A stretch of DNA of 64,000 nt. Source: an uncultured Alphaproteobacteria bacterium. Lineage in GTDB: Bacteria > Electryoneota > RPQS01. Where the stretch lies: contig CAYORN010000004.1 in assembly GCA_964406405.1 (NCBI GenBank), positions 136,163 to 200,162 on the forward strand, written 5' to 3'. The notes beneath the pieces were generated by a model. That model ran no database searches, was not told the origin of the DNA, and worked only from the letters and a program-made list of their open reading frames with translations. This document shows positions 5,305 to 49,200 of the stretch, piece after piece (within the stretch, counting starts at the first letter, position 1; every line of letters begins with the position of its first letter). Both the position numbers and the translations under genes were made by a program.

Positions 5305-5305
5305 T

Positions 5306-6130: not shown

Positions 6131-6306
6131 TGTAAGTTGAAGTAATCACACAGATGATTCGGTTCTCTTTTAGATTGTGGCTGGGTGCTTCTCGAATTAA
6201 ACTTGAAAGCCTTCGTTTTAGTTTACGGTCGTAAGAAGTAAAACAAGAAACTGCTTTGATTTGTGAGTGAACAATTAAGGAGAGATCAGAGCTAATGTCA
6301 ATCGAG

Positions 6307-6984: not shown

Positions 6985-6986
6985 TT

Positions 6987-23455: not shown

Positions 23456-26149
23456 CTACGTGCGTACTTCCGCCAAGAGGTCTTTCAGGTAGCGCGGCCA
23501 GGCGAAACCCGTCACAAATGATGACTGGCGCTCATTGTAGATCCGCTGCGGAACATCTCGCGCACTCAATTTCTCCAGCCGCTTCCACTCCTCTTCAGCC
23601 TGCCTCGTTTGACCGGATTGCCGAAGCGCCTCCACCCGCAGCACGGCCGACAGACGATCATACGGCGCCACCTTCAGGCTCCGGTCGTACAATTCGAGAG
23701 CCTTGCTCCACTCTCCCTTTTGTGCGGCCAACCAACCCTGCATCGTCAGAACGGGCGGCTCGCCCGGAGTCAACAGCGCGGCCTCGTTGATCTGCGTCTC
23801 CGCATCGGCGACGCGTCCAGCCTGAAAAAGAATCCGCGCGTAATCGAGACGCAAATCGGCAATGCCGTTCCGCTCCAACAGCGCTTTCTGAAATACGCTG
23901 TCCGCTTCCGCATACTTTCCCGCATCACCCAACGCCACGGCCAACCCCCACAACGCATCACTGTCACTGTTGTGTCGCTCGAGCACCGCCCGATATTGCT
24001 CTGCTGCTTCCGGATAAGCGCCATCAAACGCCAAAACATTTCCCAAGGCTTGGCGTACCGCTTCCCGGTCTTGGCTCGTATCCGCCGCCGCCAGCCCTTC
24101 GCGCAGTCGTTGAATCCCCGCGCTCACATTTCCATCGGTGAAGAATCGCGCAGACTGCCACTGGGTGTAGCCGCCGGCTTTCTTCGGATAATGCAGGCGT
24201 AAGCTGTCGGCAAACGCCATCGCCTTGCGGTCGTCGTCACGTAAAGAATAGAGATGCGAAAGTTCCGCCAGCACGACCTCGCCGCGCGGCGCGCGCTCGT
24301 ACGCCTTTTTCGCATACGTCATCGCTTCCGCAAGCTTGTTGCGCTCGGACGCATCCTGCGAGGCATTCACCAACCCCACCGGATAGCACTCGTCCAAGCG
24401 CGGCGCGGCAACATAGAATTCGACGAGATGCGCCAGTGTCGTGTCCATCGCAAACAGCCGCTCGCGCACGATCTCTCTTGTATCGTACTCGTCGCGGCGC
24501 GGCGAGTAATATCCATTCGCCCCTTCCGCAAAATACTCCCACACGCTCGACGCCTGATACTGGCTCATAAACGCCTTCTGCCCGGCGTCTTCGCGATTCC
24601 GCGCGGCGTGAAACAGATCGAGCAGCTGCTGCGCATCCTCCGGCGGAAAGACGCCGTGCACCTGATGCGTCAGCTCGTGCAGCACCGTGTTGTAGTTCGA
24701 ATAGATGCTGCGTTCCACGTCTTCCACACCGGTCACGGTCGTGTAGCCGCCGCAGCCGCGCACATCGTCCCACAGCCGCGAATCATAACTAATGCGCTGA
24801 TCTTTCAGCGTCTCCAGTCCCGGCGATTCTGACAACCGTTCGTGCAGCGGCTTGATGTAATAACGGTGCCCGCTCTCGACCAGTACCGGGATGTACAGCT
24901 TCCACGGCTTTACGGCGAGCGCCACTTGCTTCTGATGACGCGGAGATAAGCTCTTCCAGTTCACCACGAACTGATCAATCTGCGCGATGACCGGTATCTC
25001 CGCCTGCGCAAACTTGAGTGAGTCCTCGCCGCGATGCACGTTGATCCGCATCCGCTTCAATTCAAGGCTCTTCGCAAGACCGTTATGCGCGCGGCCATAT
25101 TCCGAACAACGAGCGAGCGCCGCGCGGAAGAAAAACTCGGCGGAATCCGCCTGCCCCTCGATCCATGCAAACGATCCCAACAGCTCCGCCGGCTCCACGG
25201 CCAAGCTGTACTTGGATAACAGCGTGCGCGACACCTGTTTCGCCGCCGCCAAATCTCCCTTTTCAAATGCGGAAAGGGCAGGGGAGAGCGCCTTCAACAC
25301 TTCGGCATTACCGTATTGCTGCGGATACTTCTCGTGGAGCTGCGTGTAATTCAGCCGCGCATAGCCGTTGCCCAGAAAGTAGTGCGCCATTTCGTAATCG
25401 GGATTCCAGCGCACCGCCTCTTCAATCAAATCAATCGCTTCACTGACCCGGCCGAGATCAATCAGCACCAGCCCGGTTTGATAGAGGATTTCAGCGGTGA
25501 GTGCCTGCCGTGTAAATGCCGTCGCCAGCGAATCGAAGGCCCGTTGATACTCGTTGCGCTTGTCGTACACCTTGGCGAGCACGATTTTCGCCTGGGCCTG
25601 CTGCGCCGCATCTGTCGCGTGACGCAGTGACCGTTCCGCATGGAATATGGCGTCATCATACTTGAGCAGGCGGAACATCAACTCGCCCCTCGCCAGAGCG
25701 GCAATAACATCTGTGCTGTCCTTTGCGTCTCTAAGCGTGCTCAGCGAATCAACCGTGTGCAGATCCTCGGACAGGAAAAGCCAGCGGTAACGCAGAGAAC
25801 GCGCCTCAGAGCTCGCGCTGCCGGAGAGGCCGTCAATGGACACCTTGGCATCGTCGAAGCGATACTGGCGCAGCAGATCCTCGGCTTGAATGACGTCCGC
25901 GGCCGTCGTATCCTGTTTCCGCAGTTCCGTCAACAGCTCTGGATGGCTCGGCAATTGTCCGATCTGCAGCGCGGCGCGGGCGCGTTCCATCACGGGCAGG
26001 GATGCGTCGTTGAACTGTTGCTCCAGCGTCGAATACACGTCTTGCGCGGTTTGCCGCAATACGGTTAGATCCGCCTGCGCGACCGCCGTCCCATAGAGCA
26101 GGACGGCGATCCAAACCAGATGACGATGCACGAAAATTTTCACACCCAC
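23456..26149 (-). CDS. Secreted TPR-repeat protein with an embedded HExxH zinc-metallopeptidase-like domain
   Basis: 897 aa with a signal-like N-terminus and many TPR-like helices at both ends. The central part carries YNTVLHELTHQVHGV (HExxH) and a downstream ...WEYFAEGANGYY. Its start overlaps the OPT gene stop by 10 nt. Confidence 0.75.
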   Translation of the reverse strand: MGVKIFVHRHLVWIAVLLYGTAVAQADLTVLRQTAQDVYSTLEQQFNDASLPVMERARAALQIGQLPSHPELLTELRKQDTTAADVIQAEDLLRQYRFDDAKVSIDGLSGSASSEARSLRYRWLFLSEDLHTVDSLSTLRDAKDSTDVIAALARGELMFRLLKYDDAIFHAERSLRHATDAAQQAQAKIVLAKVYDKRNEYQRAFDSLATAFTRQALTAEILYQTGLVLIDLGRVSEAIDLIEEAVRWNPDYEMAHYFLGNGYARLNYTQLHEKYPQQYGNAEVLKALSPALSAFEKGDLAAAKQVSRTLLSKYSLAVEPAELLGSFAWIEGQADSAEFFFRAALARCSEYGRAHNGLAKSLELKRMRINVHRGEDSLKFAQAEIPVIAQIDQFVVNWKSLSPRHQKQVALAVKPWKLYIPVLVESGHRYYIKPLHERLSESPGLETLKDQRISYDSRLWDDVRGCGGYTTVTGVEDVERSIYSNYNTVLHELTHQVHGVFPPEDAQQLLDLFHAARNREDAGQKAFMSQYQASSVWEYFAEGANGYYSPRRDEYDTREIVRERLFAMDTTLAHLVEFYVAAPRLDECYPVGLVNASQDASERNKLAEAMTYAKKAYERAPRGEVVLAELSHLYSLRDDDRKAMAFADSLRLHYPKKAGGYTQWQSARFFTDGNVSAGIQRLREGLAAADTSQDREAVRQALGNVLAFDGAYPEAAEQYRAVLERHNSDSDALWGLAVALGDAGKYAEADSVFQKALLERNGIADLRLDYARILFQAGRVADAETQINEAALLTPGEPPVLTMQGWLAAQKGEWSKALELYDRSLKVAPYDRLSAVLRVEALRQSGQTRQAEEEWKRLEKLSARDVPQRIYNERQSSFVTGFAWPRYLKDLLAEVRT

Positions 26150-27999
26150 TTCACTCCCAAGATGAGTAGAATGGCAACGACCACCATCATCAATCCTTCC
26201 CCGGCAATCAACCCCGAAGCCAGCGACGCTCCGTATTTGTCCACCGCCTCAGGATTTTTCTTGTTGTAGAAACTCGTGACCACCGCTCCCAACCACATCG
26301 CGAGCGAGGAATACGGAGTCACCATAAACGCGATTCCCAGCGCAATCGGCGACGGCAGCCACTTGCCAATCTTCTTGTTGGCTGCGCCGACAAATGGAAT
26401 TACCAATCCCACGATCGCGCCGACCAGCGCCGCGGTCATCGCGTGCGGCGGCAGCGATTTGATGCCGTTGGCGAGCAGTTCCGCCATCGCATGCCACGCC
26501 ATCACGGCCGGACCGGCAAAGTCATCACCCGGGATCGTGTACGCCGCGGTCAGGAGACGATACACTGCCGCAGCCGTGAACACGCCCGCCATAACGCCGA
26601 TCAATTGTGCAATTACCTGCCGGCGAATTGAGACCTTGAGCAAATACCCCGCTTTGAGGTCGTGCATCAGATCGCCCGATTGACTTGCTCCGGCAGCGGT
26701 GATGCCCGCCGCCATCAGGTTGGTCGGAATGCGACCCGGATCAAGTGCGCCGTACACCACCTGCGTGATCTTGCCCATCGCCCCGACCGGATTGATATCC
26801 GTCTCGCCCGTCGCGCGCACGGCAATGCTCGCAATCAAGAACGAGAGGAATACTGCGAGCACGCCCATCCAAATCGCGATGTCAAAATACACGTGCGCGA
26901 GCGTCGTCGTCAGAGCGGTTGCGGCCACCATCCCCACTGCCCACCACTTGATCGGGAACGGATCCGGCGCGTCATCCTCGTCCGCCGCAACCGCGCTCTT
27001 TCTCCCGCGGATGAGGTTCTTGAACGACGTGAACGTATGTCCGATCACCTTGTATTGCAGCCCAAGGCTGGCAAAACCCGAAGCTACCATGCACGCCACG
27101 CCCGGCCACAGCAGCCAGCGAAAGGCAAACGTGTACACATCCTTCTGTTGACAATGAATAATATTCGTGTCAAACAGAATCGGCGCACCGATTCCCCACG
27201 CCAGAACGGATCCGGCAAACAGCGACCATCCCACCTTCGGCCCGATCAAGATTCCCGCGCCCAGCATCATCGGCGACAAACTCACGCCCATCTTCACCGC
27301 GGCGAGCGTCACGCCCAGAATGCCGATGGATGCCAGACCGATGTCATCCAGCGAGAAATCGGCGAAGCGACTTAAGCCGATCGGCTTAATGCTGAACAAC
27401 AGTTTGAGTGCTGCGGCAATCACTCCCGCCCATAACAGCAGCTTCGCCTTCTTCATCGCCTCCACGCCGGAAGAGTACATCGCCTTGATCGTCTCTGCCG
27501 CGGCGGTCCCCGTCGGATAGCGAAGTTTTTCGCGCACAACCATCTGCTTCCGCAGCGGCACCGCAAAGAACACACCCAAGAATGCCACGGCAATTGCCCA
27601 CAGCACGAGTTGCCCATAGGTCAGATTATGCCCCGGCCCCATCGCCTGCATCCGATACATCTCGAGCGCGGGAATACACGCCACAAACCCGCCCGCGGAG
27701 GCCATTGTGCCTGCGGCGCTTCCCGCGGTGGCGGTGATCAGGTTTTCTTTAGCCCCATAGGGCCGCGACAAAACGCGCGCAAAGGTCTTAAAGAGCGCGA
27801 ACGAAATTACCGCCGCCGTAATCGAAGCGCCGAACGTCCATCCGATTTTCAGGCCGATGCAGACATTCGATGCCCCGATGAGCGATCCCACCACGAGACC
27901 TGAAAGCACGGCGCGCAGTGTCAGTTCAGAAGCCGTCTCGTCGCCGCGCGGCGTCTCCGGCTTGCGCGCGCGAGTTTCCGTCGGTGTTGGTTGTGCCAT
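26140..27999 (-). CDS. OPT family oligopeptide transporter (copy 1)
   Basis: 619 aa, polytopic. Typical OPT blocks are present: LTLRAVLSGLVVGSLIGASNVCIGLKIGWTFGASI, YPTGTAAAETI, GETDINPVGAMGKITQ, GDLMHDLKAGYLL and ASGLIAGEGLM. Confidence 0.9.
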   Translation of the reverse strand: MAQPTPTETRARKPETPRGDETASELTLRAVLSGLVVGSLIGASNVCIGLKIGWTFGASITAAVISFALFKTFARVLSRPYGAKENLITATAGSAAGTMASAGGFVACIPALEMYRMQAMGPGHNLTYGQLVLWAIAVAFLGVFFAVPLRKQMVVREKLRYPTGTAAAETIKAMYSSGVEAMKKAKLLLWAGVIAAALKLLFSIKPIGLSRFADFSLDDIGLASIGILGVTLAAVKMGVSLSPMMLGAGILIGPKVGWSLFAGSVLAWGIGAPILFDTNIIHCQQKDVYTFAFRWLLWPGVACMVASGFASLGLQYKVIGHTFTSFKNLIRGRKSAVAADEDDAPDPFPIKWWAVGMVAATALTTTLAHVYFDIAIWMGVLAVFLSFLIASIAVRATGETDINPVGAMGKITQVVYGALDPGRIPTNLMAAGITAAGASQSGDLMHDLKAGYLLKVSIRRQVIAQLIGVMAGVFTAAAVYRLLTAAYTIPGDDFAGPAVMAWHAMAELLANGIKSLPPHAMTAALVGAIVGLVIPFVGAANKKIGKWLPSPIALGIAFMVTPYSSLAMWLGAVVTSFYNKKNPEAVDKYGASLASGLIAGEGLMMVVVAILLILGVKWV

Positions 28000-28143: not shown

Positions 28144-29631
28144 CTAGCGTTGCTGAAGCAATCTGATATATTGATCTACGCCAGACCGGTACCTGTAAAA
28201 TGCGAGTGATCGCAGTTGTTCGGGCAACTGCGCGTGATCCACGTCGGGTGTAACTATGGAGATAATAGGTCTCCCCTCGGCCCACATGGCGCCCCACTCA
28301 GATGCTACCCAGATGCTCGTCAAGCTGTGTTCTGTGACCAAAACGCACATCTCCTTAGACTGCAACACTGCGTGCCGGATCGCATCCGGAATTCTGGTGC
28401 CCCCGACAACGTCAGCCTTATACCAGAAGCAGTCAATACCAGCGTCTTTGATCGTATTGTGAATATCCCTTGCGAAATCCAGATCCCTGTCGTCTGAGCT
28501 AAGAAAGACTCGATACTTGAACCCCTGAACCTGTTCCTGTTGTTGAACCAGATTCTCGCGGATATCCAGGTATTGAAGTGGTTTGACGACACTGGGTCCG
28601 ACCATAACTCTCGAGTGTGGGAGAGCTATGGGTTTTGCCTCGAATTCCTTAAGATAAGCTGATACTCTCATCGCAACGTCCTCGCCAGGCATCCCGGTCG
28701 CGGCCTTACTTATGTCTTGGCCGAAGAGCGTGGCTTCCCCCTTTTCGAATTGAGCCTTATTTTCGTTAGTGTCATTGAATACTCTCCAGAGATTGTATTG
28801 GTTAGGAAGACCGCCGAGAATGGTCGAAAGCAGCCCGCAGGATGACCCGCCGGTAATTCGCTCATAGGGAATGGTCGCCTTGAAATACGAATTCAGCTTC
28901 TGCGGCGGCACGATCGCCATTCTTATTACAAAGCTGCGCGTATCTGCTTCGGCAAACACGCAGAGTGGTCTCGGATTACGGTGGTCTATGCCGGGCATCG
29001 TGGCAATCAGGGGCGGTAAGAGGCGGTCTTCGTCCTTAAGTTTTCCCTCGACTACGGTAAATCTGAAATCGCGGTGTTTCAGTTCGCTCACAGATCCATC
29101 ACGCTTGAGGAGACCATGGAAGTATTGAAGCGAGTGCATCGAGTATGTCTCCACGGGCTCTTCTAACGCGTGAATATTGGCCTCATCAAAGAGATTTGTG
29201 CCTTTGAAATTCTTGCAGAGGTCTTCACGAAGCTGACGGAGCTTTTCCTGGACATCCGCATCTTGGCCCAAGTCGCTCTCAAAACCGATCACAGCATTCC
29301 ACGTTGCGTAACGGTGAGCCGACCGTGTGCATTCAGCGTCCACAATGGAGATATTGGAATCAGCGAGGAACTTGCAAATCGGTGCAAGCATACCTTGTTC
29401 TTGTTTCAGCCGGACAGCTAGGCGAGCTACTCGCCCCCACAAGTTCGGTGGAATCGGAGTGAACATTATGTCATCAATCTCGGGGCAATTACCATGCCTC
29501 CCATCGAGTGTCGGAGTCGGATAGTAGAATCCATACACCTCATCCCCGTTGAAGATCGAGAGAGGACGAAGCAAGTCGTGGGGAAGCCAGATCCAATTTT
29601 TCGTGAGCAGTCCCATTCCACCGTGAGTCAT
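28144..29631 (-). CDS. TIR-domain protein with a novel ~370-aa N-terminal region (two ACT-like segments)
   Basis: 495 aa. The C-terminal aa ~372-495 (nt ~28147-28518) read YRVFLSSDDRDLDFARDIHNTIKDAGIDCFWYKADVVGGTRIPDAIRHAVLQSKEMCVLVTEHSLTSIWVASEWGAMWAEGRPIISIV, which is the bacterial TIR_2 pattern including the S.W...E glutamate (E445). N-terminal segments ARLAVRLKQEQGMLAPICKFLADSNISIVDAECT and SFVIRMAIV...GGSSCGLLSTILGGLPNQYNLWRV look ACT-like. GGAGG lies 7 nt upstream of the ATG. AT-richer than its neighbours. Confidence 0.85.
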   Translation of the reverse strand: MTHGGMGLLTKNWIWLPHDLLRPLSIFNGDEVYGFYYPTPTLDGRHGNCPEIDDIMFTPIPPNLWGRVARLAVRLKQEQGMLAPICKFLADSNISIVDAECTRSAHRYATWNAVIGFESDLGQDADVQEKLRQLREDLCKNFKGTNLFDEANIHALEEPVETYSMHSLQYFHGLLKRDGSVSELKHRDFRFTVVEGKLKDEDRLLPPLIATMPGIDHRNPRPLCVFAEADTRSFVIRMAIVPPQKLNSYFKATIPYERITGGSSCGLLSTILGGLPNQYNLWRVFNDTNENKAQFEKGEATLFGQDISKAATGMPGEDVAMRVSAYLKEFEAKPIALPHSRVMVGPSVVKPLQYLDIRENLVQQQEQVQGFKYRVFLSSDDRDLDFARDIHNTIKDAGIDCFWYKADVVGGTRIPDAIRHAVLQSKEMCVLVTEHSLTSIWVASEWGAMWAEGRPIISIVTPDVDHAQLPEQLRSLAFYRYRSGVDQYIRLLQQR

Positions 29632-29706
29632 GATAAGCCTCCATCAAGTTAATGTTCTCTGCATCGGTGCAGATATGTATGTCTGACGTCTGTTAAATCA
29701 TAACTG

Positions 29707-31992
29707 TTAACCGATCCAGCCCAGCGCGCCCATCAGCGTAATGAAGATGCCCATCAGACTCTCACCCGCAATCAGGCCCGAGGCGGTCGGAATGACGTAG
29801 ATCTCAGCGGCAATCGGCTTCCACTTGGCGTAGAGCAACGCGACCATGCCGCCCAGAAACATCGAAAGCACATTGTAAAACGGAATCACAAACGACAACC
29901 CTAATCCCATCGCCGACGGCAGGAACTTCCGCGTTTTCGGCGCCAGAATCTCCAGCGCGGGAATCAGAATGCCCACCAGTCCGCCGATCACCAGCGCAAG
30001 CCGCGCCGTCGGATGCAGCGATTCAAATCCGTTGGAGAGCAGCAGCGCCACCGATGCCCACACCTGCGCCGCCGGAGCCGGAAACTTCGTCGAACCCAGA
30101 ACTGAAACATCCGGCACGATCAAGTAAAACGCCGGCACGACCACCGCTGTGCCAATGAAGATCCCCGCGAATTGCGCAAGAAACTGCTTCCGCGCATTCG
30201 CTCCGAGCACGTACCCGCTCTTCAGATCGGTGAGCAGATCCGACGCCGAATCCGCTACACCGGCCGTGATGCACGCGGTCATCAGATTCGTCGTCATCTG
30301 CCGCGGCGCCAAGGCTCCAAACGTCAATTGCGTAATTTTGCCCATCGCGCCCACCGGCGTCGTATCCGTTTCTCCGCACGCGCGGCACGCCACCAAGGCG
30401 AGGAAAAATGAGAGCACCACCGCTAAGAGTGACATCCAGATCGGTATCTGAAAGAAGATCGTCGCCAATGCCACGATGCCAACGGTCCCCACCAGCATCC
30501 CCGACGCAAACCACGACCCCGGCACTTCGATCCGCTCCAGAATATCTTCCTCTGCCGTTTGTTGTTTGCGGCTGAAGATCCTCCGCAATCCGGAGAACGC
30601 GCGCAGCACCGTCCGCCACTGCAAGGCAAAGCTCAATAACCCGCTCGTCACCATGCACGCCGCGCCGCCCCACAAACTCCACGACACAATATTGCGGTAC
30701 CCGCCCGGCGACTGAATCGTCTCGTCCCCGGCTTTGAATCCTATCAGCGCCGCCGCACTCGTGAATTGGGGATCGGATCGCACCCCCAGCATGGACTCGT
30801 AGTGCACCGCATGCACCGCCTTGGCCTGCAGCTTGCCCTTCATGTGTAATTGTTGCGGTTCGGAGAAAACGACTTTGTTGTACAGCGGATTCGGCGCGCC
30901 TTCCGGCAGTTTCTCCGCATTCAACGCTTGCAGGAGACTTGCCATCGTCAAATATATCTGTGTGGAACCGTAGGGGTAGCGCAAGTGAGTGGAATCGGAA
31001 CCGTCTTCGAATGTCGGCCCCGTCGTTGCTTCCTGAAGCACAAAGGTCAGCGCGCTTCCCGCCGGAACCGTCAACGGAAAACTCAGCTTGTCTTCCGTCG
31101 TAATCATCGGCGCCGGATGTTCGATCACTTTATTCTTGATCATCACTGGCGCCAGAATTCCCCAATTCAGAACACCGCCGATAAGCAGGCTCAGCGCCAC
31201 CTTGAACCCCATGATGGCCCCTGCGGCCACCAGAATCATGCTGGCTTCCACGGAAACCGTGTACATTCCCAGCCGCGAACCGAAGGTATTAAACAAGCTG
31301 GGCAGCCACGCCAGCCAATCGCGAATCGTCGCAATCGCGATGCCGAGGCTCCCGGAGTAAAACAGCGCCTTGGCTGCTTTGTTGTCTCCTTTGCCATCGT
31401 CGCCGCCATGCAGGCTGCGCAGTGTTTCCGCCGCCGCAATCCCCGACGGAAACTTGAGCCGCTCGATGTTGATCATCTGCCGCTTCATCGGAATCGCCAT
31501 CGTCACGCCGAGAATCGCCAGAAAGAAGATCCACATGCTGAGCAATCCATATCCGATATGCTCCCCGTTCACGAGCAGAAAGGCCGCAATCGCCGAGACA
31601 ATCGTGCCGCCGGTGGAGTAACCTGCCGACGAGGCGGTGGACTGCATCGCGTTGTTTTCGAGGATGGACATGTCCGTCTTGAACCAGCGCGGAAATGCCT
31701 TGCGGAGTGTTTTCCAAATCGTAAAGCTCAAGATGCACGACGTAATCGCCACGCCCAACCCCCACCCGGTTTTCAAACCGATGTAGAGATTGGAAAGCGA
31801 CATGAACGCCCCCAGGCAGGACCCCATGATCACGGCGCGCCACGTGAGCTGCGGCATGTCATCGCCGCGATAGACGTTTTCGTACCATTCGCGTTCGAGT
31901 TCTTCAGGAGTAGAGGGAGTCGGGGGCACGGGTGCGCGTACAGGCACGGAAGACCTTTCTGATAAGCAAGGGGGATGGCCGGGCGAGGGCAA
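29707..31992 (-). CDS. OPT family oligopeptide transporter (copy 2, with a large extra loop)
   Basis: 761 aa with the same OPT blocks as copy 1 (LTWRAVIMGSCLGAFMSLSNLYIGLKTGWGLGVAI, FPSGIAAAETL, GETDTTPVGAMGKITQ, SDLLTDLKSGYVLG, ASGLIAGESLMG) plus an insertion of about 130 aa (aa ~290-420). TTG start is uncertain. Confidence 0.85.
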   Translation of the reverse strand: MPSPGHPPCLSERSSVPVRAPVPPTPSTPEELEREWYENVYRGDDMPQLTWRAVIMGSCLGAFMSLSNLYIGLKTGWGLGVAITSCILSFTIWKTLRKAFPRWFKTDMSILENNAMQSTASSAGYSTGGTIVSAIAAFLLVNGEHIGYGLLSMWIFFLAILGVTMAIPMKRQMINIERLKFPSGIAAAETLRSLHGGDDGKGDNKAAKALFYSGSLGIAIATIRDWLAWLPSLFNTFGSRLGMYTVSVEASMILVAAGAIMGFKVALSLLIGGVLNWGILAPVMIKNKVIEHPAPMITTEDKLSFPLTVPAGSALTFVLQEATTGPTFEDGSDSTHLRYPYGSTQIYLTMASLLQALNAEKLPEGAPNPLYNKVVFSEPQQLHMKGKLQAKAVHAVHYESMLGVRSDPQFTSAAALIGFKAGDETIQSPGGYRNIVSWSLWGGAACMVTSGLLSFALQWRTVLRAFSGLRRIFSRKQQTAEEDILERIEVPGSWFASGMLVGTVGIVALATIFFQIPIWMSLLAVVLSFFLALVACRACGETDTTPVGAMGKITQLTFGALAPRQMTTNLMTACITAGVADSASDLLTDLKSGYVLGANARKQFLAQFAGIFIGTAVVVPAFYLIVPDVSVLGSTKFPAPAAQVWASVALLLSNGFESLHPTARLALVIGGLVGILIPALEILAPKTRKFLPSAMGLGLSFVIPFYNVLSMFLGGMVALLYAKWKPIAAEIYVIPTASGLIAGESLMGIFITLMGALGWIG

Positions 31993-38107: not shown

Positions 38108-39574
38108 CTACATGTGTATCGCGCGCTTGCCCGTCGCATCCAGACACGCTTCCCGGAACGCTTCGGTGAACGTCGGATGCGCGTGCGAGATGCGGGCGAT
38201 GTCTTCGGCGCTGGCGCGGTACTCTAACGCCACCACCGCTTCGGCGATCATGTCGGCCGTTCTCGCGCCGATCATGTGCACGCCGAGAATTTCATCCGTC
38301 TGTTTGTCGGCGAGGACCTTGACGAGGCCTTCGCTCTCGTTCGCGGCGCGCGCGCGGCCCAAGGGCTTATAGGAAAACGCGCCCACCTTGTACTCTCGTC
38401 CCATCCGCTTCAGGTCCTCTTCGGAATAGCCGACGCTCGCGACTTCCGGCCATGTATAAACGACGTTGGGAATCGCATTATAATTGATGTGCGGCTTCTG
38501 CCCGGCCATCCGCTCCGCAACGTAGATCCCTTCCTCTTCGGCTTTGTGCGCGAGCATTGCTCCGCCGATCACGTCTCCTATCGCAAAGACTCCCGGCACG
38601 GACGTTTCCAGATTCTTATTCACCCGAACAAAACCGCCCTTGTCAATGGCCACGCCGATCTTCTCTAAGCCGAGATTATCCGTGTACGGCCTCCGTCCCA
38701 CCGCCACCAAACAATAATCGGCTTCCAATTCGGTCGTAGGGGCCGATTGCATCGCCCGGTTTTCGGCAACCACTTTCACTCGCTCGCCACGCACCTCAAT
38801 ATTCTTCACCTGATGGCTGAGGTAGAACTTCATCCCTAACTTGGTGAGCGAGCGCTGCAGCTCCTTGCCCATCGTGCCGTCCATCGTGGGAATCACGGAA
38901 CCCAATAGCTCGACAACGCTGACCTTGGTGCCGAGCCGTTGAAACACGGAGCCCATCTCCACGCCGATCACGCCCGCGCCAATCACGATCATCTCCCCCG
39001 GCACATCTGCCAGTGAGAGCGCTTCGGTCGAACTGATGATCCGCTTTTTGTCAAGCGGCGCAAACGGCAGACTCATCGGCTTCGATCCGGTCGCAATGAT
39101 CACCCGCTTCGTTTCGATTCTTTTCTCCCCTCCGTTTACGGGGGATGGGGGGTCTTCCGTCCCCCTGCTTGCGGGGGGATTGAGGGGGGTGGGGGGCGGG
39201 GTAATCGCAATCGTCTGCGCATCCACAAAGCTCGCGTGCCCTTCGAACGCATCAATCTTGTTCTTGGTCATCAAGTATTTGATGCCGGAGTTCGAATCCG
39301 CGACGACTTTATCTTTCCGCTTCTGCATCTGCGGCCAGTTCACGGCCAGCCCCTTCACGTCAATCCCGTGCGTGGCGAAGTGGGTTTTCGCGTTATAGAA
39401 CAGTTCCGAGGAATCGAGCAGCGCCTTGGACGGAATGCAGCCGACGTTGAGGCACGTCCCGCCCAGCGTCGGATAGCGTTCGATGATCGCCGTCTTCATC
39501 CCCAGCTGCGCGCACCGGATCGCCGCCACATACCCTCCGGGGCCAGAACCGATGACAGTTACGTCGTACGTCAT
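38108..39574 (-). CDS. lpdA: Dihydrolipoyl dehydrogenase (E3), copy 2, carrying a ~27-aa Pro/Gly-rich insertion
   Basis: 488 aa with GSGPGGYVAA, the redox-active GGTCLNVGCIPS and HAHPTFTE. Relative to copy 1 and canonical Lpd, it has extra sequence ...ITPPPTPLNPPASRGTEDPPSPVNGGEKR... just before the conserved (V/I)IIATGS block. Confidence 0.95.
   Translation of the reverse strand: MTYDVTVIGSGPGGYVAAIRCAQLGMKTAIIERYPTLGGTCLNVGCIPSKALLDSSELFYNAKTHFATHGIDVKGLAVNWPQMQKRKDKVVADSNSGIKYLMTKNKIDAFEGHASFVDAQTIAITPPPTPLNPPASRGTEDPPSPVNGGEKRIETKRVIIATGSKPMSLPFAPLDKKRIISSTEALSLADVPGEMIVIGAGVIGVEMGSVFQRLGTKVSVVELLGSVIPTMDGTMGKELQRSLTKLGMKFYLSHQVKNIEVRGERVKVVAENRAMQSAPTTELEADYCLVAVGRRPYTDNLGLEKIGVAIDKGGFVRVNKNLETSVPGVFAIGDVIGGAMLAHKAEEEGIYVAERMAGQKPHINYNAIPNVVYTWPEVASVGYSEEDLKRMGREYKVGAFSYKPLGRARAANESEGLVKVLADKQTDEILGVHMIGARTADMIAEAVVALEYRASAEDIARISHAHPTFTEAFREACLDATGKRAIHM
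39121..39202. repeat. G-tract/C-tract hairpin-rich repeat element embedded in frame inside lpd copy 2
   Basis: ttttctcccctccgtttacgggggatggggggtcttccgtccccctgcttgcggggggattgaggggggtggggggcgggg. Several G5-6/C5-6 mini-hairpins. It resembles the intergenic elements at 50460-50505 and 51369-51445 (shared tctcccc...gggggat...gggggtggggg layout). Confidence 0.6.
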
Positions 39575-40033
39575 TTGTTATTCAAAGTGAAGAAGCTGAC
39601 AAGCCGACACGCTGAGAGGCCGACATCCGAAAACTGACCGGAGAGTGAAAGAAAAATTAAATTTGACCAAACGAAATGGGGTTAATTCCAGCACCGAATA
39701 AGTTTATGCGCGAATTGTTGCGCCTGATTTGGGCGGTTTTGGGGCCAAAATTAGCCGAAAACAGGTCTGAAAACGCATTAATGATCTGTATTTTGTAAGT
39801 TGTTGGTTATTCTCAGTCAGGAGTGTTCAGTTTGTTAATCCAATATATGCATATTTGTTCAAAAAGTCAAGTAGGGGCAGGAATGTTAAGAAGATGGGAA
39901 ACAGGAAATTGGAAATCAGACACACGAAAAGGTCGAGAGGTATTGTCTCTGCCAGATGATTGATTCAGTCAGAATTTGGTTCATTCACAGGACAGAAGTG
40001 ACTGGACTGGCTGTGCAAGCAACCCTCACGCGA

Positions 40034-40534
40034 TTACGTGCTATAGGGCATGCATTTCACATAGCTGACAAGAACGCCAAAGCTGCCATTCAAATCTCGA
40101 CCAGCAGTAACTCCGATTGAGAAAGGCGGGTCATTCCATTTCCACTCTAACATTCTGTGAGGTTGTCCCCACGGATCGACAATCGTCGTATCCGACGATT
40201 GAGTTCCATAATTTGACTGAACGGCGGAAATGACGGAGTCCAAAGGTGTGTCCGTTAGCGTATAGCCAACCCAACAAAGTGTCTTTGAGGATCTCCCGAA
40301 TACAAATTCTATCTCAACTCTCTCGCCGAAAACCTCGGTCCGGGCGAAAGTAGTAATTTCTCCCTCACGGCGAATGTCGCCGAAAGCCGCCTTCAGTTTA
40401 GTCTCAACATCCAAGCGTTTCGCGCCGAACTTAATTCCTTGCCAGTCGGACGGAGGAGGAATGTTGGGCGCATCAGCCGCCTGTGTCAACAAACACGACA
40501 AAACGCCCAAGAGGGCGACATATAGTACTCTCAT
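40034..40534 (-). CDS. Secreted hypothetical protein
   Basis: Signal peptide MRVLYVALLGVLSCLLTQAADA. No recognisable motif. An ATGA overlap with the upstream 98-aa gene suggests translational coupling. Low GC. Confidence 0.5.
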   Translation of the reverse strand: MRVLYVALLGVLSCLLTQAADAPNIPPPSDWQGIKFGAKRLDVETKLKAAFGDIRREGEITTFARTEVFGERVEIEFVFGRSSKTLCWVGYTLTDTPLDSVISAVQSNYGTQSSDTTIVDPWGQPHRMLEWKWNDPPFSIGVTAGRDLNGSFGVLVSYVKCMPYST

Positions 40535-40827
40535 GGCTTCACTTTTCTCCATTCCTGATTGGAAGTGGTTCTGCCCAACAAGTTTCGCGACTTCGACCGC
40601 CCAAGTCTTTCGATAAATTCATCTTCATAGCGCGTCAACGCCTTTCCGATCAGCCCATGCAAGGTGGTCAAGGGACGATGAGTCCGCTTTTCATAGAGGG
40701 CGAGTAGGTCGCTGACATAGCGATCAGGGAAGGCCAGCATCAGCTTGCGGATAAACTCATGCGAGGAGAATTCATTGCCCATGGACGCGAGGACATCAAG
40801 CATAAGTGATTTTTGAGTGGACTTCAT
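40531..40827 (-). CDS. Small hypothetical protein (98 aa)
   Basis: MKSTQKSLMLDVLASMGNEFSSHEFIRKLMLAFPDRYVSDLLALYEK... is a helical small protein and no family is assigned with confidence. Low GC. Confidence 0.45.
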   Translation of the reverse strand: MKSTQKSLMLDVLASMGNEFSSHEFIRKLMLAFPDRYVSDLLALYEKRTHRPLTTLHGLIGKALTRYEDEFIERLGRSKSRNLLGRTTSNQEWRKVKP

Positions 40828-40861
40828 GTGATTTCTCTTCCACCGCCAGAGCGGTTATTCC

Positions 40862-41265
40862 TTGGAGGACGGGCGATGCAATCAGCCCCTACGGGATTAC
40901 TCTTGTTTTGTCATCCTGACCGTCTGCGGGAAGGATCTCAGCTTCGAGGCAATGACCGGGCTATTACTTCTCGCATGCAATGAAACACATTCTAAGCGCG
41001 GCAGGTAAGCAGAGATTCTTCAGGCCATAAGAATGGCCTTCAGAATGACAAAGGAAAGAATAGCCGTGTAGCACTTCGGAAGGCGGGGATGCAATCGGCC
41101 CCTACGGCAGTGCTCTTCGTTTGTCATCCTGACCGTCTTCGGGAAGGATCTCAGCTTCGAGGCTATGACCGGATTGTCACTTCTCGCATGCAATGAAACA
41201 CATTCTAAGCCCGGCAGGTAAGCAGAGATTCTTCAGGCCGTAAGAATGGCCTTCAGAATGACAAA
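40862..41265. repeat. Two tandem ~213-bp copies of a palindromic (MITE-like) element
   Basis: The copies start at gatgcaatc (40875 and 41088) and are identical at roughly nine in ten positions by eye. Each contains ttgtcatcctga..gaaggatctc and, about 100 nt later, its imperfect reverse complement gagattcttc..tcagaatgacaa. Confidence 0.85.
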
Positions 41266-41322
41266 CGGGGGCGCGGCAAGGGGGCTGAGATCCTTCACCT
41301 GCGAAGCCCTGAAGACGCAGGT

Positions 41323-41712
41323 TTAGGATGACAAACTGCTATTTCCCGACTTGGTTTTGTGGATCTCTGCCAGTTTCCGCTCGGATTCCGTTAGCTCCGC
41401 GAACCATTCTTCAGCGCGGTCTTTCCAGCCGGGATTCACCGCTTCGATCAGCGCCACCTTTTTCGAACGCCGCCAACCCTTGATTTGCTTTTCGCGTGCG
41501 ATGGCTTGCTGGATGTATTGATGCTTTTCGAAATAGACTAAGCGCTGCACATTGTAATGAGAACTGAAGCCTTCATTCGTCTTCGTCTTGTGCTCGATTA
41601 TTCGCCGCTCAATATTGTCCGTCACGCCAACATACAATACGCGCGTTTTCGACGCCAGTATATAGACCCAATAATGATGTTCTTTCACAAGCCCACTCCT
41701 AAGACTTGTCAT
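41323..41712 (-). CDS. GIY-YIG nuclease family protein (UPF0213/YhbQ-like)
   Basis: HYWVYILASKTRVLYVGVTDNIERRIIEHKTKTNEGFSSHYNVQRLVYFEKHQYIQQAIAREKQIKGWRRSKKVALI is the canonical GIY..YVG..R..EH..E..K motif series. Both the start and stop codons lie inside GTCATCCT repeat motifs. Confidence 0.85.
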   Translation of the reverse strand: MTSLRSGLVKEHHYWVYILASKTRVLYVGVTDNIERRIIEHKTKTNEGFSSHYNVQRLVYFEKHQYIQQAIAREKQIKGWRRSKKVALIEAVNPGWKDRAEEWFAELTESERKLAEIHKTKSGNSSLSS

Positions 41713-41968
41713 CCTGAACCCCTAAGTCTTCGAGGGGGTGAAGGATCTCGGCTTCGAGGCTATGACCGGACTAGTTCTTCAGGCAATTGAAAACATATTC
41801 CAAGCAGCGCACGGGGGCTGAGATTCTTCACCTGCGAAGCGCCAAGACGCAGATTCAGAATGACAAGACGGGGGCGCGGCACGGGGGCTGAGATTCTTCA
41901 CGTTCTCCTCGGACCAATACCCCGGAGGGTATTGGCTAGTGAGCGGAACGTTCAGAATGACAAAACCA
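41701..41968. repeat. Further copies of the GTCATCCTGA...GAAGGATCTC / GAGATTCTTC...TCAGAATGACAA palindromic repeat family
   Basis: A forward-type copy at ~41706-41745 is followed by ggcttcgaggctatgaccgg, as in the 213-bp units. Reverse-type copies lie at ~41818-41868 and ~41884-41965. One more reverse-type copy lies at 41285-41337. Confidence 0.7.
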
Positions 41969-41982
41969 AGAGGACTCTTTTT

Positions 41983-42010
41983 CAAGTTTCAAGTTTCAAG
42001 TTTCAAGTTT
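41983..42010. repeat. Heptamer tandem repeat (caagttt) x4 abutting the sucB stop codon
   Basis: caagtttcaagtttcaagtttcaagttt. The last 2 nt are part of the sucB stop codon (TAA on the minus strand at 42009-42011). Confidence 0.9.
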
Positions 42011-43256
42011 AGATTCTGAGCATCAATCTCATCGGGTCTTCGACGAGTTCTTTGATGCGGACGAGGAAGCCGACGGATTCGCGGCCGTCAATGACGCGAT
42101 GGTCATAGCTCACGGCGACGTACATCATCGGGCGGATCTCGATTTGATCGTTGACGGCGACGGGACGCTTGACGATGTTGTGCATGCCGAGGATGCCGGA
42201 CTGCGGCGGATTCAGAATCGGCGTGGACATCAGCGAGCCGAACACGCCGCCATTGGAAATCGTGAACGTGCCGCCGGTCATCTCGTCAATCGTGAGCTGA
42301 TTGTTGCGCGCGCGGGAGGCCAACCGCTCGATCTCGATTTCGATCTGGCCGAACGAGAGCGATTCCGCATTGCGAATCACCGGCACAACCAATCCCTTCG
42401 GCGCCTGCACCGCGATCCCCATGTCCACGTAATCATGATAGACCAACTCGCCGCCGTCAATCATTGCGTTCACCGCGGGGAATTGCTCGATCGCGCCGAC
42501 CACGGCCTTGACGAAGAACGACATGAAGCCGAGGCTGACCTGATGCTTCTCCTTGAACCGCTCTTTGAACTTCGCCCGCAGCGCCATCACGTTCGTCATA
42601 TCAATCTCGTTGAACGTGGTGAGCATCGCGGTCTGATTTTTCGCCGCGACTAAACGTTCGGCTGCCTTTAACCGCAGCGCGGAGAGTTTTTGACGGCGCT
42701 CGGTGCGCTGACCCATTGACACGACGCGCGGCGCGGACACGGGCACAGCACGCTGTGCCCCTACGGCCGTCGGTGCGGGTTGCGGTTGAAATTTCAGCGC
42801 ATCTTCTTTCGTGATCCGTCCACCACGTCCCGAGCCATTAATATCTTCCGGCCGTAGGCCGCGCTCTTCCAGAATTTTTTTCGCCGCAACCGAGGGAATA
42901 GCCTTCGTGGGAACGTCAGCCGACACAGTTGGTGCCGGTGCCGGAGTTCGCGTTGGAGCGACCTGCGGTGGCGGAGGAGGTGCGGAAGACACACGGCCGT
43001 GTGCATCTACCCCAGCCTTTCCGGTCTCATCAATTGTTGCCGCGACGGTGCCGACGCGGACGGTTTCGCCCTGCTGCACCTTGATATGCAGCGTGCCGGC
43101 GGATTCCGCGGAGACGGACAGCGTGGCCTTGTCCGATTCAATCTCGAACAGCGGCTCGTCCTTCTCGACGTGATCGCCGTCCTGCTTGAGCCAGGCGGCC
43201 AGCGTGACTTCGGTAACGGATTCGCCGGGACTGGGTATAGTAATGTCTATTGGCAT
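42009..43256 (-). CDS. sucB: Dihydrolipoyllysine-residue succinyltransferase (2-oxoglutarate dehydrogenase E2)
   Basis: 415 aa with a lipoyl domain ([10 protein letters not shown]), a PSBD ([32 protein letters not shown]) and a catalytic domain ending DHRVIDGRE...LEDPMRLML. Confidence 0.95.
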
Positions 43257-46277: not shown

Positions 46278-49200
46278 ATGAAGATATTTGCGAGGGTTTT
46301 AGCAAGCATGGCTGTGCTTATCTTGGGTCAAACCACTTTTGGCCAACTCTCGGGGCCCTTAAGTGGAGTGCTCGGACCGGGGACGTTCACTGTAGTTGGC
46401 CAGTGCACAGTTAGGGCAGGCAACTCTCTTACCGTCAGACCCGGCACAACGCTAAGGGCCAATGGTCCGTACGGGTTGCATGTCTATGGGAACCTTCAAG
46501 CAAACGGCACACAAACGCAGCCAATCGTTCTCACTGGAATTGGGTGGTGGGGGTTAAAAATCTATACAAACAGTTCCGGCAATTCTTTACAGTACTGCCA
46601 AGTATCCGGTTCGGTCAGGTCGGGAGTCGTCTGCTATGGCTCGGCGGAATTAACACGTTGTACAGTCTCTTCGAATACTGCTCCCGCAGGGAGTGCGACC
46701 TACGGTGGCGGCGTCTGGTGTCGGCAAGGTTGCTCAATGACCTTTTTTGGCTGTTCGATCATGGGCAACACCGCCTGGCAAGGAGGTGGAGTCAGTGTGT
46801 GGAATGGATCCGTAACTTTTTACAACAGCTTGATTTCGGGCAATCATGCAGACAATGTAATTGGTGGTGTGGATCTTCAAGGTGAAGGTGCGTTCATTAA
46901 TTGCACCATCGTAGACAATTCAGCACCCTACAATGTGGGGGGACTGAGCATATGGGGTAGCGACTCTCACTTGTTGAGTTCGTCTGTTATCGCAAATAAC
47001 TCGGGCCCCACAGGGGGAATAAGGGGTTGGAGCGGTGCTGCAATGCAGATTAGGAATTGTGACTTCTTTGGTAATTCCGGAGGCAATTTTTCGGGAACGC
47101 TGCCTTCAGGTCTTGGGCAGATTGTGACAACTAATCCCAATGGGGATCCATGCGATCAGTACCAGAATATTTTCCTCAACCCACAGTTCATAGGTGGCGG
47201 GGATTATCATCTGAGCAACGCCAGTCCTTGTCTCGGCGCAGGAGATCCATCTGATGCACCTTCGACTGACATGGACGGGCATGCTCGTCCATGTCCGCCC
47301 GGAGCGCGTCCAGACATGGGTTCCTACGAAACACCAAATTGCACGTACGGTTGCCCGGATGGTTCGATTAGCGGGGTGGTGAGGAATGAGCAGAATAATC
47401 CGCTAAACGGAGCCGCTATCACGTTGCACCGTATTGATCAGTGGGCGCTGAATAGAACGGTTTATTCGGACGGCAGCGGCGCGTACTCGCTCACGAACGT
47501 CGCGGCGGGCACATACGAAATCTGGGTTTCGAAGACAGGGTACATTCAGATTACTCAGACAAATTGGACAATCGGTTGCAATGAGCCGCAGACGCTCTGG
47601 TTTACGATGCATCCGTTAGACTTCTCTATTAGTTCTGTTGATGTCTTTCAAACAGTGCTGTATTTCCAGCCGGAACCCTTGATTGCCAATAAGGCCACTG
47701 TGGTCATTGTCCCGATCAGCAACCCCAATCACATCAACGGATATGTGCGAGCGCGATTGACGATGAAGGATAACGGAGTTCCGGTGCCGGGATTCGAGCC
47801 AATGACCTCGTCGGTGTTTTGGGTGAAGCCGTCATACTCAGTTCAAGACGCCGAGAACTGGACTGATGCTCTCTACTTCACTATTATGCCGCCTCCGCGC
47901 GACCACATCACCTTTGAAGTTCAATTGCTTAGTGAGGATGGGACACCTCATTCCGCACCGATCCAGAGTGCCGAACACAGATTCGTTCGTTCACGCGACC
48001 TCACACTTAGGTTCATTCCGATTACCACCGCAGACCACAGAAACTGGTACCAAACTTTCTCTAACACGTATATGAATTCCACTTCTGATCGTCTTCGTGG
48101 CATGCTCCCATACAGCAACATTAACTTTAGCCTGTCCGGGACGCCAGTTGGGGTGCTATCTTCGTCCACTGATCCGCTTGTCCTAGGCGAGGTGCGTCTG
48201 AACATGATGGCATGGCTTGCGCTAAATGGAATTGTCAGCGCTGATGTGTTCTATGTTTGCATGATGCCCACCTGGTCAATTGATCCATCGAATCCGGGGT
48301 TAATCGGTCAGTCAGGTAGACTGTGCCTCCCCTTTGACGCCGGTCGGTTCCTGCCACTACGATACTGCGTATTTGTTGGAACTCAGGCTGACGCCGATAA
48401 TCCCGTCAACGCATCAGTGGTCGCGCACGAACTTGGGCACTCGATCGCTGGCTTGAATCTCTGTGAGGAGTTATACCAACCGGGAGTTTGCGAACGCCCA
48501 TCCCGCCCATGTGAACTCGATTTCTGGGGGCTCAACACGCACCCAATGTCCACGTGTACCCTTGACCGCATGAGTCTCAAATCGGGTTCCGGAAGTCACG
48601 ACATCATGACCGATGGCGCCGCATGGGGATTCTGCAATACATGGGTGCGTTGGGATTCAACTTATAGGAAGTTCAAGGAACTTGCTTTAGGCTGGCTCCC
48701 GCCGCTTAAAGATAATATTCGCCTAGAAGACGCTGGCCCATACTGTGTCATCTCTGGCATTGTCGCACGTGATCACAGTGCTGCGCCTTTGTTTCAAGTG
48801 GAAAACTTCGCTGGTGAATACACGCCTGTTCTACTGGATTCAGGAGTGTTTCATGCTGACTGGTATGACGCGGAATGGAATACGCTTTTGCAGACTCTCT
48901 ATTTTGATCCCGTGTTTGAGCGGCGGGAAGGATTGCTGGATTACGCCGATTTCTTCATTGTGACTTCGCGACCGGCGAATGCGCGGAATATGATTCTGTA
49001 TGACGGCGACACGGAAGTCGGGAGGATCACGGGGACAGGAGCGGTGCCACAGGTTTCACTTGCCGCCCCAAACGGCGGCGAATCGCTCTTAGACAGCACT
49101 ATTGTGAGATGGACGGCAAGCGATGCCGATCTTGACTCACTGCAGTTTGATGTGTTCGCTAATCGCGACGGCGGGAATTGGGAACCGCTGGCGATGGGAA

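Follow-up and report, generated by a model that had tools for sequence, protein, structure and literature searches.

TIR-domain enzymes that cleave nicotinamide adenine dinucleotide (NAD+) unify the immunity of bacteria, plants, and animals, and the individual systems differ in what switches the TIR domain on. The known bacterial switches are recognition of a phage protein (ThsB and NLR-like proteins), a guide RNA or target (SPARTA), and dedicated cyclic-nucleotide messengers (TIR-STING, TIR-SAVED, Pycsar, and Cat1); SARM1 senses nicotinamide mononucleotide (NMN) and NAD+. The ACT domain is a classic sensor of amino acids and other metabolites in core metabolism. Here, we describe a gene encoding a protein of 495 amino acids (aa), in which two predicted ACT-like domains precede a C-terminal TIR domain (ACT-ACT-TIR). 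The gene is located in a 64,000-nt stretch of contig CAYORN010000004.1, hereafter the window, and its positions are given in window coordinates. The sensor fold would be new to TIR effectors, and the type of effector is already known.

Among the closest described proteins, SARM1 resembles the window protein in that a single polypeptide joins a metabolite-sensing domain to the TIR NADase that it gates (a gating that would apply here as well), in an aligned WxxxE motif, and in a matching TIR fold. SARM1 differs in its ARM repeat sensor and its SAM oligomerisation domains, whereas the window protein is bacterial, comprises ~500 aa, and carries a tandem-ACT module and no SAM domain. TIR-STING, TIR-SAVED, CAP12/PCTIR, and Cat1 (CARF-TIR) likewise fuse a sensor to a TIR domain. 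Their NADase is turned on by a ligand-induced filament or oligomer, and the ligand is a cyclic nucleotide supplied by an adjacent cyclase or a CRISPR polymerase. The window protein, in contrast, shows the reverse order, with the ACT-like sensor at the N-terminus and the TIR domain at the C-terminus, and a cyclase is neither found among the scanned ORFs of the window nor conserved in the family. Finally, metabolic ACT-ACT proteins such as SerB2, GcvR, the AHAS small subunit, and aspartokinase share the tandem ACT followed by a Rossmann-like catalytic domain, but sequence identity amounts to 6–11%, and the catalytic domain is a TIR domain here and a HAD phosphatase in SerB2.

A first-pass annotation of the window had described the architecture as unlike Thoeris, CBASS, Pycsar, and SPARTA and had seen no known TIR partner next to the gene. 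Both statements were borne out. Pfam scanning covered the two flanking genes for oligopeptide transporters (OPT), a TPR gene, and eight further large open reading frames (ORFs) between 17.3 and 50.5 kb, and revealed no ThsA/SIR2, STING, NLR, cyclase, or Argonaute gene among these ORFs. With ThsB of Thoeris, the family shares a bacterial TIR domain with a conserved glutamate, a weak similarity to the ThsB model, and an adjacent ThsB in one cyanobacterial subfamily. However, ThsB is small or carries other N-terminal domains and acts with ThsA (SIR2/SLOG or Macro-TM), whereas the window protein scored below the cut-off of the ThsB_TIR model (17.2 vs. 21.2 bits) and no ThsA-like gene was found among the scanned ORFs. 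The same applies to the TIR effectors of CBASS and Pycsar (CAP12-PCTIR 11.9 vs. 24.7 bits; no STING, SAVED, or CAP12 sensor; no cyclase among the scanned neighbours), and a CBASS lying beside one family member (L099) is a separate system. Regarding SPARTA and other short prokaryotic Argonaute-TIR systems, neither APAZ nor PIWI was matched, and the structural match is confined to the TIR domain. PADLOC v2 and NCBIfam (June 2026) gave partial, weak matches over the TIR segment only (best E 5e-4 for PADLOC; best defence model in NCBIfam E 6e-5, 22 bits vs. a cut-off of 600), and no defence sensor in either collection matched the N-terminus, which answers a check proposed with the first-pass annotation. 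The PADLOC candidates PDC-S66 and SpbK match the TIR segment weakly (E 5e-4 and 7e-3) and leave the N-terminal 360 aa uncovered; the protein is a member of neither.

Domain architecture and predicted active site

The gene and the parts of its product are listed below, together with the evidence for each assignment (AF2, AlphaFold2).

28144–29631, minus strand: ACT-ACT-TIR gene, 495 aa, ATG start, uninterrupted ORF; stop codon 28144–28146
29638–29642, minus strand: GGAGG ribosome-binding site, read from the sequence, 6 nt before the ATG
29452–29631, minus strand: N-terminal beta-rich region (aa 1–60), AF2 secondary structure; conserved D54, P59, and P61
29437–29439, minus strand: codon of W65, just before beta1 of ACT1; invariant in 123/123 family members
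29140–29430, minus strand: ACT-like domain 1 (ACT1, aa 68–164), by Pfam ACT, PRK08577, model topology, and Foldseek
28888–29139, minus strand: inter-ACT region (aa 165–248) with a helix, a small sheet, and a beta-hairpin (aa 223–241), AF2 model
28921–28923, minus strand: codon of R237, in the beta-hairpin aa 223–241; invariant in 123/123 family members
28579–28887, minus strand: ACT-like domain 2 (ACT2, aa 249–351), by AF2 topology, Foldseek, and conservation map
28519–28578, minus strand: helical linker between ACT2 and TIR (aa 352–371), the segment of lowest conservation (42% identity with the ortholog in the related genome L007)
28147–28518, minus strand: TIR domain (aa 372–495), by Pfam TIR_2 and TIR, PDB profile matches, and Foldseek
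28297–28311, minus strand: WxxxE motif, with the W441 codon at 28309–28311 and the codon of the putative catalytic E445 at 28297–28299

The C-terminal part matched Pfam TIR_2 over aa 375–483 (E 6.6e-14, 52.9 bits; cut-off 28) and Pfam TIR (E 5.5e-6, 26.7 bits; cut-off 21.3), and the first of these matches confirms the TIR domain of ~125 aa that the first-pass annotation had placed there. Profile matches in the PDB comprised the TIR domains of Toll-like receptors (TLRs), TIR-STING (6wt6), AbTIR, and SARM1, the best on the sequence level being animal TLR TIR domains. A PDB search with the TIR domain as a single sequence returned no match, so detection was by profiles only. On the structural level, Foldseek comparison of the AF2 model to solved TIR domains gave TMt values of 0.55–0.70 (0.70 for AbTir 7uxu, 0.66–0.68 for PdTIR 3h16, and ~0.64 for the SARM1 TIR), and the fold matches the solved TIR domains of AbTir, SARM1, RUN1, and SPARTA. 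TIR-STING (6wt6) was among the best matches by both sequence and structure. Profile, fold, and the position of the catalytic glutamate all place the window protein in the TIR superfamily.

Alignment by hhalign (probability 95%) put W441 opposite W638 and E445 opposite E642 of SARM1, the latter of which is the catalytic glutamate of SARM1; the SARM1 TIR sequence in this comparison was the human one. The first-pass annotation had named E445 (codon 28297–28299) as part of the motif, which proved correct, the motif being W441-x-x-x-E445. In an alignment of 123 family members, from which conservation was derived, E445 is kept in 119 and W441 in 112. It is plausible, at roughly even prospects for the reading as a whole, that the TIR domain is active as an enzyme that consumes NAD+, with E445 as its catalytic glutamate.

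For the N-terminal part, a full-length AF2 model (mean pLDDT 78) and a separate model of aa 1–364 (pLDDT 76, pTM 0.74) agreed on two beta-alpha-beta-beta-alpha-beta units at aa 68–164 and aa 249–351. Foldseek searches of the PDB with the N-terminal model returned almost solely tandem-ACT regulatory proteins, including 2nyi, GcvR (1u8s), M. avium SerB2, AHAS small subunits, aspartokinase, and the regulatory domain of threonine dehydratase. The single ACT protein 1zpv aligned with a TMt of 0.74 and a root-mean-square deviation of 2.8 Å, and the top match of the full-length model was SerB2, an ACT-ACT-Rossmannoid enzyme. Furthermore, the NCBIfam model PRK08577, which describes an archaeal ACT-type protein, matched aa 66–135 (E 5e-5). 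Two ACT-like domains at the N-terminus are supported by these models and matches. Two such segments had already been suggested in the first-pass annotation; both units were recovered and the first had been placed correctly, but the second shifts from aa ~224–300 to aa 249–351. The second string quoted there (aa 261–284) corresponds to the beta1-alpha1 loop, the helix, and beta2 of ACT2.

Conservation within the family is not confined to the TIR domain. At least 90% of the 123 members retain D54, R103, G266, W282, and G298 in the N-terminal module, where W65 and R237 are invariant, and F376, S378, W441, and E445 in the TIR domain. ACT1 carries G80 in its beta1-alpha1 loop, where the family consensus reads H-x-P-G, and the conserved motif R103-S-A-H-R107-Y108-A-T-W111 in its beta2-beta3 hairpin. 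In ACT2, G266 (codon 28834–28836) lies in the beta1-alpha1 loop and is kept in 120/123 members (98%); further conserved residues are W282, E296, and G298. The conserved N-terminal residues map, in the models, to the ACT1 beta2-beta3 hairpin, the hairpin ahead of ACT2, and the glycine loop of ACT2 with its adjacent strands, an arrangement that would fit a single ligand pocket common to both ACT units. An AbrB/SpoVT or MazE swapped-hairpin at aa 12–32 (IWLPHDLLRPLSIFNGDEV) was rejected (hhalign probability 0.4–0.6%; no Pfam match in 81 members).

The protein family and its genomic neighbourhoods

The first-pass annotation had stated that the N-terminus matches nothing that could be named. This does not hold, as the region defines a large undescribed family, in which at least 390 cluster representatives share one layout across distant phyla. 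Out of 1.84 billion cluster representatives, a profile of the N-terminal region retrieved 390 at E ≤ 1e-3, and 143 of them reached E ≤ 1e-30. An exhaustive profile search was needed for this: word-indexed homolog searches with the single protein or an 81-sequence alignment found only five relatives, a locus scan with the 5-sequence alignment gave 5 + 1 loci, and the 81-sequence alignment contains no conserved 7–10-mer. Almost all members measure 490–550 aa. They are spread over Bacteroidota, cyanobacteria, and uncultured phyla, most of them on contigs of 34–48% GC, and the source names found read "hypothetical protein" or "TIR domain-containing protein" only; named examples come from metagenome-assembled genomes (MAGs) of Pseudanabaena and from Emticicia sp. 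TH156 (WP_101725298.1), and MFN7204378.1 is one of the Pseudanabaena members.

Pfam scans of 81 members detected TIR_2 in 51, ThsB_TIR in 36, and ACT in 30 (counted at E ≤ 0.01; best match E 5.8e-8). No effector domain other than TIR or TIR-like was found on the N-terminal module in these scans, and three members in which Pfam called no TIR domain (P0004, P0005, and P0006) still align at the F, S, W, and E positions. In the literature open to full-text search, no description of an ACT-TIR fusion was found, and ACT domains go unmentioned in two Aravind-lab surveys on NAD/TIR and conflict systems. A phage origin or an anti-defence homolog was rejected on three results: PHROGs gave only a weak match to the TIR segment of the window protein, a BFVD fold search with the N-terminal module returned nothing credible, and only one family member was found in IMG/VR.

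Genomic contexts were compared in 12 independent lineages, whose members are 24–37% identical except for the cyanobacterial group. No neighbouring gene common to the 12 lineages was found, and there is therefore no conserved partner gene. In five of the 12, the ACT-ACT-TIR gene lies beside defence or mobile genes:

L099: DncV-like CBASS cyclase and patatin; HTH and Peptidase_M78
L100: NACHT NTPase, Mrr, ParB-methyltransferase, and terminase, on an IMG/VR contig
L087: a row of six TIR genes, among them a CAP12-type TIR, caspase-TIR, TIR-WD40, and TIR-LRR
L088, L096, L097, and L003 (cyanobacterial subfamily, counted as one lineage): ThsB_TIR and SLATT directly upstream on the same strand in the first three; ThsB_TIR and Nmad2 directly downstream, with BrnT/BrnA, in L003
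L101: IS66

Glutamine or glutamate enzymes are found beside the gene at the following loci:

L007: glutamine synthetase (GS)-like gene immediately upstream
L095, 3137–4216, plus strand: type II GS immediately downstream
L093, 3953–6736, minus strand: 927-aa DUF4062-glutaminase fusion
L093, 9570–17530, minus strand: giant glutamate-synthase-like protein of ~2889 aa

The window locus and those of L001, L006, L098, and L102 show no relevant neighbour theme. A conserved GS-like partner gene was considered and rejected: the GS genes of L007 and L095 are of different types and 27% identical, and the window is without one, which leaves a weak thematic lead.

Some of these loci deserve a remark of their own. 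The row in L087 (6199–15591), on a Bacteroidota-like contig of 37% GC, comprises a TIR_2 gene, a CAP12-type TIR, ACT-ACT-TIR, caspase-TIR, TIR-WD40, and TIR-LRR, and includes one 182-aa ORF without a family match. In the cyanobacterial subfamily from Pseudanabaena and a relative (L088:164–3203, L096:3171–6210, L097:5036–8075, and L003:7399–10435), the C-terminus is a divergent TIR-like one, and a small ThsB-type TIR gene is always adjacent. Its SLATT partner is a two-transmembrane effector; ThsB, partner, and family member may form a three-gene unit or be neighbouring systems. The DUF4062-glutaminase fusion of L093 is odd in its own right.

Candidate mechanism and alternative explanations

We propose that ACT-ACT-TIR proteins are self-contained, metabolite-gated immune or suicide switches that combine sensor and effector in a stand-alone polypeptide, a reading to which we give about an even chance. 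From protein anatomy and genomic context, we infer NADase activity, ligand gating, oligomerisation, and an immune role. Classically, a pair of ACT domains takes up a small metabolite, either in the glycine loop or at the interdomain interface, and its oligomeric state changes upon binding. TIR NADases such as SARM1, AbTir, TIR-STING, and TIR-SAVED need ordered self-association to build a composite active site, and assembly under ACT control would therefore make a coherent switch. The tandem-ACT module would act as the allosteric gate of the TIR domain: binding or loss of the ligand would drive or release self-association of the protein, which would bring TIR domains together head to tail and form the composite active site. 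Depletion of NAD+ would follow, or possibly the synthesis of an ADP-ribose (ADPR)-derived product, and lead to growth arrest or death of the infected or stressed cell. This logic would equal that of SARM1 or of TIR-STING and TIR-SAVED, except that the sensor would be an ACT module and that no dedicated partner would make the signal. As no partner gene is conserved, NAD+ depletion is more parsimonious than production of a signal. The evidence for a role in defence is circumstantial, i.e., association with defence or mobile neighbours in the five lineages listed above.

If true, an ACT-gated TIR domain would add a new class of input to the TIR switches. Candidates for the metabolite would be amino acids, e.g., glutamine, and molecules derived from nucleotides. 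Through the protein, the amino-acid or nitrogen status of the cell, which phages disturb, would be coupled directly to the destruction of NAD+. It would thus be a bacterial counterpart of metabolic sensing by SARM1, built from a different sensor fold. The family is compact, with ~500 aa and one gene per system, has no partner, and counts hundreds of diverse members. We suggest, tentatively and as something possible rather than probable, that it represents a widespread unrecognised class of single-protein immune or suicide switches in which a TIR NADase is gated directly by a primary metabolite via ACT domains rather than by a phage protein, a nucleic acid, or a dedicated second messenger.

Several results weigh against a metabolite-gated immune switch. 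With regard to the sensor, the Pfam ACT match of the window protein (aa 78–135; E 1.3e-3, 18.9 bits) stays under the cut-off of 27, and global Foldseek TM-scores of the N-terminal module are low (0.23–0.26). The latter is due to insertions, namely the N-terminal beta region and the 85-aa inter-ACT segment, so that the ACT assignment draws on topology together with local and family-level matches. The N-terminal module occurs without any other effector, which is unusual for modular defence sensors. With regard to context, seven of the 12 lineages have no defence neighbour, and three are found beside glutamine or glutamate enzymes (L007, L093, and L095), which fits a metabolic role equally well. 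The window neighbourhood itself consists of housekeeping and transport genes, without defence or mobile genes in the scanned ORFs. Gaps of 75 and 144 bp separate the gene from the two co-directional OPT genes, no terminator or promoter match was found there, and the three genes may be co-transcribed.

One alternative is that the protein is a metabolic regulator, in which the tandem ACT would sense an amino acid (glutamine or glutamate) and tune a TIR-type NAD+ or nucleotide hydrolase in nitrogen or peptide nutrition, in the manner of SerB2, aspartokinase, or GlnD. A housekeeping role in regulation would then be a first among TIR enzymes. The layout mirrors that of ACT-ACT-catalytic enzymes, with SerB2 as the top full-length structural match, and the gene lies co-directionally between two oligopeptide transporters in both the window and L007. 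The GS-like gene upstream in L007, the type II GS downstream in L095, and the DUF4062-glutaminase and giant glutamate synthase that flank the gene in L093 point in the same direction, and so do selection and vertical inheritance matching those of the neighbours. However, the two GS neighbours belong to different subfamilies (27% identity), the window has none, and the theme is limited to three of the 12 lineages with a different gene each time. A patchy distribution, a foreign composition, and a strain-level frameshift are atypical of core regulators, and five lineages carry the gene in defence or mobile islands. To our knowledge, TIR domains with the catalytic glutamate have so far come only from immune, death, or virulence contexts, which further speaks against a housekeeping function. 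We consider this alternative unlikely.

We regard it as quite unlikely that the protein generates or receives a signal in the manner of Thoeris, i.e., that its ACT module detects infection and its TIR domain makes an ADPR-derived messenger, like ThsB, for an effector encoded elsewhere or for the neighbouring SLATT or Nmad2 proteins in cyanobacteria, or that the ACT pocket receives a nucleotide signal made by the adjacent small ThsB-type TIR. The constant adjacency of ThsB_TIR in the cyanobacterial subfamily and the ThsB_TIR profile matches of 36/81 members favour such a function, and the conserved R103, R107, Y108, W111, R237, and W282 would fit an anionic or aromatic ligand. But the adjacency is restricted to one subfamily, in which L088, L096, and L097 are identical and L003 is 74% identical; ThsB and SLATT alone are plausible as a complete two-gene system; the window protein falls short of the ThsB_TIR cut-off; and no effector candidate is conserved elsewhere or present in the window. 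A non-enzymatic TIR domain, either an interaction or scaffold module under ACT control, as in TLR adaptors, or a decaying remnant, is highly improbable. It would agree with animal TLR TIR domains being the best sequence-level PDB matches and with a frameshifted allele in the sister species, yet the catalytic glutamate and the tryptophan are kept in >90% of the 123 members, no interaction partner is conserved, and, for the window lineage, decay is at odds with a ratio of non-synonymous to synonymous substitution rates (dN/dS) of 0.17 across all domains.

History of the gene at the OPT locus

The ACT-ACT-TIR gene is flanked by two OPT paralogs, as the first-pass annotation had proposed and the Pfam matches establish:

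26140–27999, minus strand: downstream neighbour OPT-619 (619 aa), Pfam OPT E 2e-108; context only
29707–31992, minus strand: upstream neighbour OPT-761 (761 aa), Pfam OPT E 4.5e-96 in two stretches; context only

The paralogs are 28–41% identical to each other. OPT-761 carries an insert of ~140 aa (roughly aa 291–431) relative to the OPT profile and OPT-619, which is also present in the orthologs of L004, L007, L010, and L012. Its TTG start at 31992 is probably over-extended, as the ortholog starts ~16–35 codons later.

The ACT-ACT-TIR gene is compositionally foreign to its genome. Its GC content is 0.514, compared to 0.588 ± 0.015 in 23 other window genes (z = −4.9), and its GC content at third codon positions (GC3) is 0.575, compared to 0.736 ± 0.045 (z = −3.6). 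The first-pass annotation had noted a low-GC patch and a GGAGG ribosome-binding site of the gene's own; the latter was found 6 nt ahead of the ATG, and the direction of the former was right, but its size had been overstated at 35–50%. At the borders of the gene, we saw no direct or inverted repeats of note, found no tRNA genes or Rfam elements, and obtained no promoter or terminator matches above shuffled expectation.

For the comparison to related genomes, OPT-619 orthologs served as an anchor in 80 loci from GTDB species representatives, and the window proteins were run against all of them by tblastn. The closest OPT-619 loci belong to MAGs that carry the label candidate division KSB1 and to related lineages, likewise uncultured. 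Among ~30 genomes with an OPT-619 of 65–89% identity, only one, L007, has an ACT-TIR homolog within 10 kb of OPT-619; in ~28 related genomes, the gene is not at the syntenic site within that distance. A check of presence and absence in relatives, which had been proposed with the first-pass annotation, thus showed that the gene is not universal at the OPT locus, and it is restricted there to the window and L007. L008 and L011, which come next in relatedness, carry a gene for a MaeB-type malic enzyme upstream of OPT-619 in place of ACT-TIR.

The L007 ortholog is intact and 68% identical over 494 aa, and the gene order in L007 is big secreted protein, OPT-761, GS-like gene, ACT-TIR, OPT-619, and TPR. 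Between the window and L007, synonymous divergence (dS) and dN/dS were 1.20 and 0.17 for ACT-TIR, 1.18 and 0.06 for OPT-619, 1.37 and 0.16 for OPT-761, and 2.03 and 0.17 for TPR. The L007 ortholog has a GC3 of 0.515, compared to 0.67–0.72 in its neighbours. The shared site, a dS matching that of the flank, and the low GC3 therefore indicate one acquisition before the two lineages split. The gene probably came by horizontal transfer from a donor of lower GC into the ancestor that the window organism shares with its sister species (L007), and it has since been co-inherited with the flanking genes under purifying selection. Of the insertion proposed in the first-pass annotation, the foreign composition stands, whereas a recent event does not agree with the same site in L007 and the dS of 1.20 vs. 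1.18 for OPT-619.

Further observations concern the sister lineage. Relative to L007:8372–9856, a single-T deletion splits the ortholog in two other assemblies of the L007 species, L004 (9369–10858) and L005 (3541–5030), into ORFs of 207 and 285 aa. The deletion (CTCC-ACTACC vs. CTCCTACTACC) is not part of a homopolymer, and the DNA around it shares 99.9% identity with L007; the deletion could be a strain-level knockout or a shared low-coverage assembly error. The GS-like gene of L007 (6973–8250) lies between OPT-761 and ACT-TIR, where the window has a 75-bp spacer (29632–29706), and tblastn across the 64 kb revealed no trace of it. A GS-like homolog (53–62% identical) lies downstream of the TPR gene in L008, L011, L033, and L034. 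The L007 MAG (CAYJKM010000015.1) is titled "uncultured Alphaproteobacteria", but its OPT-619 and synteny group with MAGs of KSB1, Eisenbacteria, LCP-89, and Zixiibacteriota, and the label is probably wrong.

Other parts of the window also deviate in composition. A low-GC islet at 39600–42000 (~0.51 vs. 0.59) breaks the 2-oxoglutarate dehydrogenase cluster between lpd (38108–39574) and sucB (42009–43256) and contains small ORFs only, among them a 172-aa putative secreted protein (40034–40552) and a 129-aa ORF (41323–41712) that, judged by eye, has the look of the GIY-YIG nuclease family. GC drops to 0.45 at 5000–7000, around an ORF without a Pfam match (5306–6130), and the gene of a 1393-aa CarboxypepD_reg/TSP3-repeat protein (46278–50459) has a GC3 of 0.585, low like that of the TIR gene.

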